NCBI GenBank assembly: GCA_963826115.1
Contig: CAWGVS010000011.1
Location: forward strand, 160,001-224,000
Length of the DNA: 64,000 bases
Direction of reading: 5' to 3'
DNA from: an uncultured Candidatus Rokubacteria bacterium
Lineage (GTDB): Bacteria > Methylomirabilota > Methylomirabilia > Rokubacteriales > DASRDR01
Below are positions 46,230 to 48,523 of the stretch, piece by piece; the stretch's first letter is position 1, and each line of letters begins with the position of its first letter. Under the pieces are notes generated by a model, which was not told the origin of the DNA, ran no database searches, and saw only the letters and a program-made list of their open reading frames with translations. Position numbers and translations under genes: made by a program.

Positions 46230-47135
46230 ATGGAGTCAGCGGACGACGTCCGAGCGAGCCTTGCCGTTGCCCCGCTCGGGGACCTTCGCCCGCACGAGGC
46301 CACCTCCCCGGACGGTGAGTCCCGCGTGGCTGATCTCCTCGGGGCCGCGCGCGTTCTGTCCTGGCCGCTCGTCGTGGATGCCGCGTCCGGGCTGATCCTG
46401 GATGGGAGCCATCGCGCCGTCGTCCTCGCCCGCGACTTCGGCGCGCGCTTCGCCGTGATCCAGCGGGTCGACCTCGACTCGCCGGACGTACGCATCGGAA
46501 CCTGGTGCCGCGTGCTCGAGAGCGTGCCCGCCGCCGCCTTCGACGCCGCCCGCCGCGCGCTCGGGCTCGAGGTCGGCGCGGAGGGAGGCCTCCGATGTCA
46601 CTACGGCGACCGTGTCTACGGCCGGCCCGGGCCCCAGGCGTCGGATCCTCACGCTCTGGCGAGTGAGGTCGAGCGACTCGTCTCACGGAACGGCCGCCGG
46701 CGCCCGCCGCGTCTGGTCGAGGACGAGGTGATCGCCGAGTGGCTGGCTGCGGCCGACGTCGTCGTCTTGCGTCCGCCGGCGCTCGACAAGCCAACCGTGC
46801 GCGAGCGGGCGGCCGGTCCGCTCCTGCCGCCAAAGTCGACCCGCTTCCTCTTGCCGTACCGGGTGCTCGGGCTTGCCGTGCCGCTCGCGGCGCTCGGGGG
46901 ACCGCGAGCGGGGCTCGTGGCCGAGGTCGAGCGCGAGCGGGCGCGGCCGCTTGCGTGCCTGGGGGACGGGCTGGCCGTCGACCGGCACTACCCCGAGCGG
47001 CTCTGGCAGTTCGCCGACCATCGAATTCCCGACAATCTCTTCGCGGACGAGGCGGGACGCCACGCATACGCGGACGCGCTCGCGCGGGCGACGTTCCCGG
47101 ATCCGGCGCGACCCGGCCCACGCCGTCAAGGCTGA
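46230..47135 (+). CDS. ParB/Srx-fold protein, SerK/SbnI-like free L-serine kinase candidate
   Basis: [30 protein letters not shown]...[12 protein letters not shown] in the order and spacing of SerK/SbnI. Confidence 0.7.
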
Positions 47136-47158
47136 ATCCAAGGCAGAAGGAGGCTCCC

Positions 47159-48523
47159 GTGGCCCAGACCAAGTTCGTGCTGGACGAGAAGGACCTGCCG
47201 AGCCGCTGGTACAACATCCAGGCGGACCTGCCGGCGCCGCTCCCGCCGGTGATCCACCCGGGCACGCTCCAGCCCATCGGCCCCCAGGACCTCGCGCCGC
47301 TGTTCCCGATGGAGATCATCAAGCAGGAGGTGAGCCAGGAGCGGTGGATCGACATCCCCGAGCCGGTGCGGGACGTCTACCGGCTCTGGCGGCCGACGCC
47401 CCTCTACCGCGCCCACCGCCTGGAGAAGGCGCTCGGGACGCCCGCGCGCATCTACTACAAGTGGGAGGGCGTGTCGCCCGCCGGGAGCCACAAGCCCAAC
47501 ACCGCGGTCGCCCAGGCCTACTACAACCACCAGGAGGGCGTCCGCCGCATCACGACGGAGACGGGCGCGGGGCAGTGGGGCTCGGCGCTGTCGTTCGCCT
47601 GCCAGATCTTCGGGATCGAGTGCAAGGTCTACATGGTGCGGGTCTCCTACGACCAGAAGCCGTACCGGCGGATCATGATGGAAGCGTGGGGCGGCCAGGT
47701 AGTGGCGAGCCCGTCTCGCGAGACTGCGGCCGGCCGCGCGATTCTTGCGAAGGACCCGCAGTCGCCGGGAAGCCTCGGCATCGCGATCTCGGAAGCGGTC
47801 GAGGAGGCGGCCCAGCGCGAGGACACGAAGTACTCGCTCGGTTCGGTGCTGAACCACGTGCTGACGCACCAGACGGTGATCGGGCTGGAGGCCCAGCGGC
47901 AGCTCGAGATGGCGGGCGACCGTCCGGACATCCTCGTCGGCTGCATCGGGGGCGGCTCGAACTTCGGCGGGTTCACGTTCCCCTTCCTCCAGGACAAGCT
48001 GAACGGGCGGTGGAAGGACCTTCGCGTCATCGCCGTCGAGCCCCAGGCGACTCCGAGCCTCACCAAGGGCGAGTACGTCTACGACTTCGGTGACACCGGA
48101 CAGATGACGCCGCTGATCAAGATGTACACCCTCGGCCACTCCTTCATCCCGGCGCCGATCCATGCGGGGGGCCTCCGCTACCACGGCATGGCTCCTCTGG
48201 TGTGCGCGCTCTACGACCACAAGGTGATCGAGGCGGTGGCCGTCCACCAGAACCCCACCTTCGAGGCGGCGCTGACGTTCGCGCGGGCGGAAGGGTTCCT
48301 GCCGGCGCCCGAGGCGGCTCACGCGATCCGGGTCGTCATCGACGAGGCGCTCCGCTGCAAGGCCTCGGGGGACCGGAAGGTCATCGCCTTCAACTTCTGC
48401 GGCCACGGCCACTTCGACCTCTCCGCCTACGAGCGCTACATGACGGGCAAGCTCGAGGACTTCGAGTACCCCGCGGCGGAGGTGAAGGCGGCGCTGGCGG
48501 GGCTTCCGAAGGTCAAGGTTTAG
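47159..48523 (+). CDS. trpB2: Tryptophan synthase beta chain 2 (TrpB-like PLP enzyme)
   Basis: [23 protein letters not shown] (PLP Lys), [39 protein letters not shown]. Confidence 0.95.

Follow-up and report, generated by a model that had tools for sequence, protein, structure and literature searches.

A divergent SerK/SbnI-type kinase homologue encoded directly upstream of trpB2 in a Rokubacteria soil bacterium: a candidate indole-to-tryptophan module

Organization of the kinase-trpB2 locus

The window, that is the whole 64-kb stretch of DNA that was analysed, comes from a soil-dwelling member of the Rokubacteria. Its forward strand carries the gene of a kinase homologue of 301 aa, hereafter P0001, delimited by its translation and its homologues (46230..47135; ATG start, TGA stop at 47133-47135). 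After a spacer of 23 nt, read from the sequence (47136..47158, forward strand), there follows trpB2 (47159..48523, forward strand; GTG start), which encodes a 454-aa TrpB-like PLP enzyme of the TrpB2 class, matching NF009057, TIGR01415 and PF00291. A Shine-Dalgarno sequence, AAGGAGG, occupies positions 47147-47153 of the same strand, 5 nt ahead of the GTG start of trpB2. These coordinates bear out the initial annotation, which had placed a 301-aa ORF on the strand of trpB2 and ending 23 nt before it. Scanning of positions 45800-48900 revealed no promoter-like and no terminator-like site (0 of each), nor was a leader or riboswitch evident in an Rfam scan of 44000-50000, the sole match being a chance miRNA. 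Besides trpB2, the kinase gene has a TPR protein gene, an acyl-CoA dehydrogenase gene and a toxin-antitoxin pair as neighbours, and no siderophore cluster surrounds it at the locus. It had also been claimed that the window holds no trp gene besides trpB2; indeed, trpA, trpB1, trpC, trpD and trpE are absent from these 64 kb, and none of the five was found on contig C11, to which the window belongs.

The 301-aa ORF is a real gene and not a chance frame in DNA of 72% G+C, since 87 database proteins match P0001 at E <= 1e-3, all of them with MESADDVR-like N-termini, and since its in-genus dN/dS of 0.16-0.27 indicates purifying selection. The downstream gene is assigned to TrpB2 because it scores far above the cut-offs of NF009057 (748.7 bits; cut-off 366) and TIGR01415 trpB_rel (670.7 bits; cut-off 518.85) and reaches just 138.8 bits on TIGR00263 trpB, below the cut-off of 392.45. 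The solved chains closest to its product are 6hul_B (E 1.6e-136), 4qys_B and 6hte_B. As for RNA libraries, 20 runs contain a share of at most 0.20 of the words of the stretch. Contigs from four libraries (at least 85% likeness) match both genes, mainly trpB2, and mostly at 85-95%, so that they derive from relatives; among those listed, none bridges the kinase/trpB2 junction.

Homology, fold and conserved motifs of the kinase homologue

The 301-aa protein is a divergent, true homologue of SerK and SbnI. A search of the PDB with a profile of 29 P0001 homologues (alignment A1) returned, at E <= 1e-8, no chains other than those of SerK and SbnI (E 4e-13 to 6e-10), namely 5x0b (4.3e-13), 1vk1, 5x0j, 5x0e, 5uje (1.7e-11), 5ujd and 6nr6. 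In HMMER, positions 14-222 of this profile align with residues 21-241 of the 242 residues of 5x0b. Comparison of A1 by hhalign with five archaeal SerK sequences, two of which exceed the NF053625 cut-off, gave a probability of 98.2% and an E-value of 4.3e-14 over 203 columns, pairing P0001 residues 13-222 with SerK residues 25-251 of 252. The homologous core delimited by hhalign and HMMER thus spans residues 13-222 (46266..46895, forward strand) and consists of a ParB/Srx-like N-domain and a SerK-type C-domain. More distant representatives of the family give a similar picture: of 80 examined, 78 match the model for SerK and 64 the one for SbnI (E <= 1e-3).

The AlphaFold2 model of P0001 (pLDDT 94.6, pTM 0.91) displays the two-domain fold of the SerK/SbnI superfamily. 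In a Foldseek comparison with the PDB, its nine top matches are without exception chains of SbnI or SerK (E 1.3e-13 to 2.7e-10; TM by target 0.65-0.77), aligned over 234-252 columns that include both domains. ParB/Noc structures match the model over 73-86 columns of the N-domain at E 0.02-0.7 (best E 0.02, 79 columns), and sulfiredoxin structures over about 78 columns. A DNA-binding protein of the ParB/Spo0J type (PF02195 plus HTH) is ruled out, as P0001 has no Pfam match and ParB structures align with its N-domain only. A sulfiredoxin is ruled out as well, its structural match being limited to about 78 columns, whereas SerK and SbnI align over both domains. Profile, hhalign and AlphaFold-Foldseek analyses therefore all agree with the likeness to SerK and SbnI, rather than to a DNA-binding ParB or a sulfiredoxin, that had been recognized from the sequence.

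At the level of database models, P0001 lies outside the established families. Its match to the SerK equivalog NF053625 is confined to residues 18-96 and amounts to 15.7 bits (E 0.0063) against a cut-off of 380, which two archaeal loci, L124 and L127, surpass with 433.6 and 455.4 bits. On the SbnI equivalog NF033589 (cut-off 350 bits), P0001 gives no match at E <= 1. Nor does any Pfam family match it at E <= 1, including any HTH or other DNA-binding domain; membership of DUF1015 ('SerBK') was rejected on the same ground. Database sources label proteins of this type 'hypothetical protein', just as the initial annotation had anticipated for standard pipelines.

The four motifs from which the SerK/SbnI likeness had originally been proposed are all present in the translation and in the expected order: LRPHE at residues 19-23, ILDGSHR at 56-62, VRIGTW at 87-92 and PPKSTRF at 200-206. 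P0001 hence carries the motif set of the superfamily, i.e. the catalytic Glu in HE, followed by DGxHR, TW and PK(S/T)TR. In the structure-chain alignment, the catalytic Glu and the four motifs line up as had been proposed, including the SbnI-like 'TRF'. Within the HE motif (His22-Glu23; 46293..46298, forward strand), Glu23 corresponds to SerK Glu30, and its column reads Q or A in the SerK E30Q and E30A chains, mutants named in the PDB titles; Glu23 is also conserved in at least 90% of 126 sequences. Further along the forward strand, DGSHR (residues 58-62; 46401..46415) corresponds to DGHHR of SerK and DGVHR of SbnI, Thr91-Trp92 (46500..46505) aligns with the TW of both proteins, and PPKSTRF (residues 200-206; 46827..46847) is the counterpart of SPKTTRH in SerK and PAGVTRF in SbnI. 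Residues H22, E23, D58, G59, H61, R62, W92, P200, K202, T204 and R205 are invariant in all 29 sequences of A1, and W92 remains so in alignments A2 and A3.

Beyond the core, P0001 possesses a C-terminal extension (residues 223-301; 46896..47132, forward strand) that is absent from the 242-aa SerK, the alignments with SerK stopping at residue 222. It is modelled at a block pLDDT of 94-98 up to about residue 290 and contains a conserved DRxYxE motif (D251-E256; 46980-46997, forward strand), of which R252, Y254 and E256 do not vary in A1 and are at least 90% conserved in A2 and A3.

Linkage to trpB2 and genomic context

The survey of adjacency to trpB2, the feature from which the pairing had been proposed, gave a divided answer: the linkage is kept throughout the bacterial clade, but it is absent from the archaeal relatives, and the kinase itself is rare. 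In all 12 bacterial MAG loci, trpB2 lies immediately 3' of the kinase gene. A scan of 251 Methylomirabilota genomes found the kinase directly before trpB2 at 16 of 17 places, the 17th being undecidable on a 2.2-kb contig. The sole metagenome contig found (A7 scan) belongs to the same trpB2-linked clade and also carries trpB2 directly downstream of the kinase. Adjacency holds for kinases that range over 40-90% in identity and belong to three family codes (f1, f2, f5). Outside the genus the gene upstream of the kinase differs, and adjacency is kept at 40-57% kinase identity with an altered upstream context at loci L020, L021, L022 and L135. Within the genus, the order OYE-like protein, TPR protein, kinase, trpB2 and ACAD forms a syntenic block, so that the adjacency counts are for the most part inherited and non-independent. 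Contig C11 is, moreover, collinear with the end of contig C5, and a 215-kb homeologous region carries a second kinase copy, 78% identical to P0001, in the same bin; this copy was accordingly rejected as independent support from 'two copies in one genome'.

The kinase was never seen without trpB2 in the bacterial clade, the undecidable place apart, and the reverse is frequent, since the kinase gene occurs in 16 and TrpB2 in 151 of the 251 genomes. The latter count takes in the unpublished genome G218, whose locus L080 serves as one example of a kinase-less trpB2 and as one row of alignment A6. Such an asymmetry is compatible with a kinase that depends on TrpB2 for its usefulness. In genome G244 (97% complete) the TPR gene abuts a 96%-identical trpB2 and the kinase gene is gone, and in G241 the kinase is reduced to a 101-aa remnant beside a retained trpB2, so that TrpB2 does not need the kinase. 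The TrpB2 of the locus is 94-97% identical to that of congeners, including the kinase-less G244 (96%). Prediction of a complex between TrpB2 (A6) and the kinase (A1), run without controls, scored 0.00 against a mark of 0.32, which carries no weight for binding either way. The reach of the pairing is limited, as it occurs in no more than a small fraction of a single uncultured phylum of soil bacteria and the retention of trpB2 clearly does not require the kinase. The initial annotation knew of no earlier description of such a pairing, and none of trpB2 with a dedicated upstream kinase gene was found in the literature.

The archaeal relatives share 22-30% identity with P0001 (tblastn), and in none of the 30 examined does trpB2 lie within 1.5 kb. 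Their 105 neighbouring ORFs include 3 SerA-like dehydrogenases, 2 class-V aminotransferases and 10 Urm1/ThiS-like carriers. At two archaeal loci the kinase relative stands next to CofE, and one family member is fused to a CofC-like guanylyltransferase, which suggests that substrates other than serine occur in the family. In the family tree, the bacterial trpB2-linked clade forms a separate supported branch (98*), with P0092-P0097 and P0096, P0099 and P0102 as sister groups, and the ESM-Atlas clusters nearest to P0001 are archaeal.

Elsewhere in the bin, trpB1, trpA and trpC are located on contig C4, trpD on C6 and the chorismate-binding component of anthranilate synthase on C12. The genes of serine synthesis are less typical. 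The best serB candidate of the bin reaches 39.3 bits, short of the cut-off of 144.15, and the best PGDH-like ORF is short, with 300.5 bits vs a cut-off of 454. Canonical serC was not found in the bin either, and its best serC-like ORFs resemble class-V aminotransferases of the aspartate/serine-glyoxylate type. This is common in the phylum: canonical serC (TIGR01364) is above cut-off in 2 of the 251 genomes and is matched at E <= 1e-60 in 4, being missing from the other 247 of these Methylomirabilota, with or without the kinase. The distribution of serC accordingly does not distinguish kinase-bearing from kinase-less genomes, and the independence from SerA/SerC that the initial annotation proposed draws no support from it.

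A proposed indole-to-tryptophan module and its relation to known systems

Taken together, the kinase gene and trpB2 could well form an operon for an accessory indole-to-tryptophan module, a reading that we hold, on balance, to be likely. By homology, the 301-aa protein would act as a small-molecule kinase of the SerK/SbnI type, in which the ParB/Srx-like N-domain would hold the nucleotide, Glu23 would activate the hydroxyl of free L-serine, and the phosphoryl group of ATP or ADP would be moved to serine, yielding O-phospho-L-serine (OPS). In a second step, modelled on the published TrpB2 class, OPS would bind to the PLP of TrpB2 and lose its phosphate to give an aminoacrylate, which would react with indole to form L-tryptophan. 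The pair thus probably converts serine and indole, at the expense of ATP, to tryptophan, the net reaction being serine, nucleotide and indole to tryptophan and phosphate. Such a reaction would render the capture of indole effectively irreversible. Since canonical trpE, trpD, trpC, trpB1 and trpA are present elsewhere in the bin, the module would serve for salvage or scavenging rather than as the main pathway.

The gene could instead encode a general free-serine kinase for serine and OPS metabolism, like Thermococcus SerK, with its position before trpB2 being inherited synteny. The five-gene block of the genus, the conservation of trpB2 after loss or truncation of the kinase, and the SerA-like, class-V aminotransferase and Urm1/ThiS-like genes, in place of trpB2, beside archaeal relatives all fit this explanation, as does the description of serK adjoining serA-like and aminotransferase genes in Desulfurococcales (Makino 2016, PMC5120207). 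It seems unlikely, however, given that adjacency outlasts both divergence to 40-57% identity and a changed upstream context (the same four loci), that only a short spacer with a Shine-Dalgarno sequence separates the two genes, and that the bacterial kinase was never met apart from trpB2 (adjacent at 16 of 17 places, the other being undecidable). The idea that serine is not the substrate, and that the enzyme phosphorylates another hydroxyl compound such as L-threonine, homoserine, D-serine, glycerate or lactate, draws on the scores of P0001 far under both serine-kinase cut-offs, on two differing motif positions and an extra domain, and on the CofC-like fusion and the two CofE neighbours, which point to 2-hydroxy-acid substrates somewhere in the family. 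If such a kinase fed TrpB2, the product would be a modified tryptophan, e.g. beta-methyltryptophan, instead of tryptophan. To our knowledge, though, the experimentally studied members of the SerK/SbnI fold all phosphorylate serine. Moreover, SerK is described as rejecting threonine and homoserine (Makino 2016, PMC5120207), and the near identity of TrpB2 among congeners, kinase-less G244 included, gives no sign of a specialised acceptor site, so that we regard another substrate as quite unlikely.

A role without kinase chemistry at its centre is improbable. The protein would then be mainly a regulator or scaffold, either a ligand-sensing transcription regulator like SbnI, which NCBIfam names 'bifunctional transcriptional regulator/O-phospho-L-serine synthase', or a nucleotide switch of the ParB fold acting on trpB2 or TrpB2. 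ParB-fold proteins may indeed work as switches or scaffolds, as described in PMC12704722, and the conserved C-terminal extension is without an assigned role; yet the catalytic-site motifs are all invariant, P0001 has no HTH or other DNA-binding Pfam domain, and structures of DNA-binding ParB proteins match about 78 N-domain columns only, at E >= 0.02. Finally, the enzyme might run in reverse, from OPS to serine, and replace the phosphoserine phosphatase absent from the bin, much as GapMind 2026 proposes that SbnI-like DUF1015 proteins ('SerBK') substitute for SerB (PMC13759103). The lack of any serB above cut-off in the bin would agree with this. Nevertheless, P0001 matches neither DUF1015 nor any other Pfam family, the likewise absent canonical serC leaves no evident source of OPS, a gene found in 16 of 251 genomes is too rare for a core step of serine synthesis, and the link to trpB2 would go unexplained; the same source describes the reverse reaction as thermodynamically unfavourable (PMC13759103). 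We therefore consider the reverse reaction highly improbable.

The interest of the proposed module lies in the wide occurrence of TrpB2, whose use of phosphoserine in vitro raises the questions of the OPS source and of the cost of an activated substrate for indole salvage. With a kinase encoded directly before trpB2, genomes would for the first time hint at an OPS source of its own for this enzyme. If this is true, tryptophan would become a third pathway served by free-serine kinases, besides cysteine and staphyloferrin B, and proteins at present listed as hypothetical or ParB-like would acquire a family name. A broader extrapolation is more doubtful: the pair might be a self-contained, ATP-driven device for indole capture and the first visible case of long-form SerK-like hydroxyl kinases that each feed a dedicated downstream enzyme. 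If so, some relatives could provide OPS for cysteine synthesis that depends on sulfur carriers, another could be a long-sought 2-hydroxy-acid kinase of F420 synthesis, and the C-terminal extension might dock the kinase onto its client enzyme.

Among known systems, the downstream gene is a full-length member of the TrpB2 class (TIGR01415; 6hul, 4qys, 6hte). Enzymes of this class are cited as OPS-dependent (PMC11917138, citing Busch et al. 2014), and the OPS preference of the present one is predicted from its class. In length, P0001 belongs with the uncharacterised long-form SerK-like proteins of Thermoproteota and Nitrososphaeria (~276-300 aa), with which it shares the C-terminal extension and the R252/Y254/E256 motif. 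At E <= 1e-8, 216 of the 401 genomes sampled contain a match, a figure to which shorter matches restricted to the N-domain also contribute. Unlike P0001, these proteins have Urm1/ThiS-like, SerA-like and CofE neighbours and no trpB2.

SerK itself (T. kodakarensis TK0378; 5x0b, 5x0e, 5x0j; NF053625) has the same two-domain fold as P0001 (Foldseek E 2.6e-12 to 2.7e-10; about 236-241 columns, about 21% identity), and the two proteins share the Glu30 position and the HE, DGxHR, TW and PK(S/T)TR motifs. P0001 differs from it by a Ser in place of His within DGxHR, a Phe in place of the His that follows TR, and some 80 additional C-terminal residues with the DRxYxE motif. SerK phosphorylates free serine, and the T. 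kodakarensis gene is described as lying outside any operon, with a role in cysteine synthesis and serine assimilation (Makino 2016, PMC5120207), whereas P0001 is bacterial and its gene precedes trpB2.

The best Foldseek matches of P0001 are with SbnI of Staphylococcus (5uje, 5ujd, 6nr6; NF033589), at E 1.3e-13 to 2.3e-13, TM by target 0.70-0.77 and 16-18% identity. The two proteins have in common 'TRF' followed by an R..L.vPLa.L stretch, both of which SerK lacks, although SbnI has a Gly where the P0001 family carries the invariant Lys202. P0001 is accompanied by no staphyloferrin B or other siderophore cluster, and the regulatory role of SbnI has no visible counterpart here. The activity of SbnI as a serine kinase is taken from PDB names, NCBIfam names and one reference title. 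SbnA is the PLP enzyme partner that receives the OPS made by SbnI. SbnI is thus a kinase that makes OPS for a PLP enzyme of its own, whose gene lies close by, and this is the arrangement proposed for P0001 and TrpB2.

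The candidate kinase-trpB2 pair and its surroundings

The predicted kinase (P0001) is encoded on the forward strand at 46230-47135 (301 residues, stop codon TGA), and its translation carries the motifs LRPHE, ILDGSHR, VRIGTW and PPKSTRF in this order. The trpB2 gene follows on the same strand (47159-48523), with a GTG start codon at 47159 located 23 nt past the kinase stop and 5 nt past an AAGGAGG sequence. Translation thus bears out the initial annotation on both the gene spacing and the four motifs, and the kinase gene is real. By its model scores, the 454-residue product of the downstream gene is a TrpB2: it reaches 748.7 bits with NF009057 and 670.7 bits with TIGR01415, both above cut-off, and just 138.8 bits with the TrpB1 model. 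Its nearest solved structures are 6hul_B (E 1.6e-136), 4qys_B and 6hte_B. The two genes form an apparent operon, shared by a small clade within an uncultured phylum of soil bacteria. The window was also said to hold no other trp gene, which holds for trpA, trpB1, trpC, trpD and an anthranilate-synthase component; in the bin (G000), trpC, trpB1 and trpA lie together on contig C4, trpD on C6 and the anthranilate-synthase component on C12.

Upstream of the pair are an Old-Yellow-Enzyme-type NADH:flavin oxidoreductase (43213-44727, reverse strand, PF00724) and a 450-residue TPR protein (44825-46177, forward strand), whose low-complexity middle is rich in Ala and Pro and whose C-terminal part carries TPR/YfiO-like repeats; both genes are in genus-wide synteny. 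Downstream, trpB2 is separated from an acyl-CoA dehydrogenase (49397-50551) by two genes that share 4 nt, for a Phd/YefM antitoxin (48667-48966) and a PIN/VapC toxin (48963-49349). Since the dehydrogenase begins only about 30-180 nt past trpB2 at four loci of congeners (L011, L012, L015, L016), the toxin-antitoxin pair at 48667-49349 looks like a lineage-specific insertion.

A further kinase-trpB2 pair lies on contig C5 of the bin. The whole of C11 (238.8 kb), which holds the window at 160001-224000, is collinear and inverted with C5:1,908,940-2,124,945 (~1.909-2.125 Mb). Nucleotide identity is 78-88%, and HSPs of at least 500 nt cover 181,080 of the 238,819 bases of C11. Because of this collinearity, the C5 pair is orthologue-like and was rejected as an independent second copy. 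The likeness of the two contigs is likely due to a co-binned congener fragment or a very large duplication (contamination estimate of the bin, 5.34%), a point to bear in mind whenever genes of this bin are counted.

Relationship of the 301-residue protein to SerK and SbnI

The protein has no Pfam match at E ≤ 1. Its sole NCBIfam match is a faint one to SerK (15.7 bits against a cut-off of 380), and a single-sequence search of the PDB ranked SerK first, with E 0.17. As foreseen in the initial annotation, all 87 proteins found at E ≤ 1e-3 in a 90%-clustered database are nameless or "hypothetical protein"; a 50%-clustered library gave 378 matching representatives. A profile (A1) built from 29 close homologues retrieved only SerK and SbnI chains from the PDB at E ≤ 1e-8 (5x0b, 4.3e-13; 1vk1; 5x0j; 5x0e; SbnI 5uje, 1.7e-11; 5ujd; 6nr6). 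When it was compared with a second profile, made from five archaeal SerK sequences of the searched genomes (two of them above the SerK cut-off), kinase residues 13-222 aligned with SerK residues 25-251 of 252 (203 columns, probability 98.2%, E 4.3e-14). The AlphaFold2 model, built from 126 sequences, has a pLDDT of 94.6 and a pTM of 0.91, and when it is searched against the PDB with Foldseek, every one of the top nine matches is an SbnI or SerK structure (E 1.3e-13 to 2.7e-10, over 234-252 columns). A ParB-type match first appears at E 0.02 (79 columns) and sulfiredoxin matches at E 0.1 (77 columns), so that neither a DNA-binding ParB nor a sulfiredoxin is the best structural counterpart. Collectively, the homologue profile, the profile-profile comparison and the model settle the identity of the protein as SerK/SbnI-like, the kinship first proposed from its motifs.

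Linkage to trpB2 and possible role of the kinase

Among species-representative genomes, a relative is encoded at 13 loci, in 12 Methylomirabilota/Rokubacteria MAGs and one Calditenuaceae archaeon. A trpB2 gene lies directly downstream in all 12 bacterial loci (one ends at a contig edge after 43 codons) and is absent downstream in the archaeon. Scanning 251 genomes of the phylum placed the kinase in 16 genomes, largely overlapping with these 12 loci, and in 17 places; trpB2 adjoins it at 16 of them, and the remaining place holds a distant homologue, on a contig of 2.2 kb. The same gene order was found on the single metagenome contig recovered, where the kinase is 57% identical. The proposed adjacency therefore stands within the bacterial clade, but it concerns only 16 of 251 genomes and is not seen in archaea, where no trpB2 occurs within 1.5 kb of the SerK-like gene at any of the 30 best loci.

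Oxidoreductase, TPR protein, kinase, trpB2 and dehydrogenase form one syntenic block across the genus, so the 12 in-genus cases count as a single observation. Better evidence of a link comes from outside the genus, where the pair is kept at 40-57% kinase identity with no TPR gene upstream (genome G250 of family f5, G214 and G215 of f2, and locus L135). TrpB2 itself is found in 151 of the 251 genomes, hence the majority of TrpB2 genes have no kinase. In the congener G244 (97% complete; L081, G244:C87:26048-30301), the TPR gene abuts a 96%-identical trpB2 and the kinase is missing; in G241 (L057, G241:C5:1254044-1257376), only the first 101 codons of the kinase gene remain beside an intact trpB2. 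These are two separate kinase losses within one genus. At another locus (L016/L050, G239:C80), the trpB2 beside the kinase is broken into two frames near codon 259/260, by a frameshift or an assembly error.

On the TrpB2 tree, kinase presence requires three changes. The 17 kinase-less f2 sequences (within L062-L088) are united as a clade with full support, on a long branch (0.17 changes per site), and the kinase-linked f2 sequence of G214 lies outside this clade; the cause could be taxonomy, or a shift in rate once the kinase was lost. In-genus dN/dS values of 0.16-0.27 indicate that the kinase is under purifying selection, yet it changes at three to four times the rate of its neighbours (trpB2, 0.04-0.08; dehydrogenase, 0.05-0.07). 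Within the kinase-bearing bacterial clade the kinase has never been seen without trpB2 and trpB2 is often seen without the kinase, as expected for an accessory gene dependent on TrpB2. Inherited synteny plus repeated kinase loss could also produce this gene order.

SerK is described in excerpts of its report as specific for free serine and ADP (Makino et al. 2016, PMC5120207), and passages of PMC11917138 cite TrpB2 enzymes as dependent on O-phospho-L-serine (OPS) (Busch et al. 2014). By homology and gene order, the best reading, which we hold to be moderately probable, is that the kinase would convert free serine to OPS and that TrpB2 would join OPS with indole to give tryptophan, as literature on the class suggests. 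In the bin, serB and canonical serC all fall below cut-off, but in the phylum as a whole 247 of the 251 genomes lack canonical serC, whether or not they carry the kinase. A general serine kinase, next to trpB2 by inherited synteny, appears unlikely; the genus-wide block fits it, and the out-of-genus pairs speak for a link. A kinase acting on another substrate, to which a CofC fusion (P0166) and CofE neighbours of family members point, is rather less likely. We regard a regulator or scaffold as improbable, and a reverse-acting SerB substitute, akin to the DUF1015 "SerBK" proposed in the GapMind 2026 text (PMC13759103, in part), as very improbable.

Full-text searches, reaching few subscription papers, gave no description of a serine kinase paired with TrpB2. 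Passages of a paper that mentions serine kinase, tryptophan synthase and phosphoserine together do not link them, publications naming both SerK and TrpB are unrelated by their titles and abstracts, and by a term search a 2025 survey of the ParB-CTPase fold (PMC12704722) mentions SerK and SbnI, but not tryptophan or TrpB.

Family position and comparison with SerK and SbnI

At E ≤ 1e-3 the SerK model finds 78 out of 80 distant representatives and the SbnI model 64 (best E 9.3e-28), none of them near the respective cut-offs. In a rapid maximum-likelihood tree with 88 sequences, canonical SerK forms a separate branch (support 100), and the bacterial sequences linked to trpB2 fall together on one branch (98), nested in a supported group (98) alongside seven metagenomic sequences. 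On these comparisons, the protein belongs to the SerK/SbnI superfamily and to neither curated equivalog family. Among Thermoproteota, the long form bearing the C-terminal extension is common: 216 of the 401 genomes sampled match at E ≤ 1e-8, the weaker matches being short N-domain-only proteins. The closest ESM-Atlas clusters are archaeal, mostly Nitrososphaerota.

In the representative library, the 510-residue P0166 fuses a CofC-like guanylyltransferase (22-199, PF01983, E 2.9e-8) to a SerK-like C-terminal half (246-471), and could be a candidate for the kinase that acts before CofC in making F420; P0221 (498 residues) has a SerK-like part at 239-456 and no Pfam match. Across 30 Thermoproteota loci (L093-L122), a 91-101-residue Urm1/ThiS-like protein often directly follows the long-form SerK-like gene on the same strand (10 of 105 neighbouring ORFs). 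A D-2-hydroxyacid (SerA-like) dehydrogenase lies immediately upstream in three loci, and a class-V aminotransferase and an F420-0:gamma-glutamyl ligase occur in two loci each. Such neighbours may be a sign of cysteine synthesis that uses OPS and a sulfur carrier, or of cofactor pathways.

The residues H22, E23, D58, G59, H61, R62, W92, P200, K202, T204 and R205 are invariant in all 29 A1 sequences, and invariant or at least 90% conserved in 126 sequences, down to 20-30% identity. Glu23 occupies the column of SerK Glu30, the catalytic Glu named in the initial annotation; indeed, the PDB chains of the SerK E30A and E30Q mutants carry A or Q exactly there. The protein is a true, divergent SerK/SbnI homologue whose catalytic site, as far as alignment can tell, is intact. 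The SbnI-like "TRF" ending, also pointed out earlier, is seen in the alignment with SbnI, which shares with the kinase family both this motif and the subsequent R..L.vPLa.L stretch. SerK, on the other hand, has His at the positions of Ser60 and Phe206 and ends before the last 80 residues of the kinase, which contain the invariant motif DRxYxE and, up to about residue 290, are predicted at high confidence in the model.
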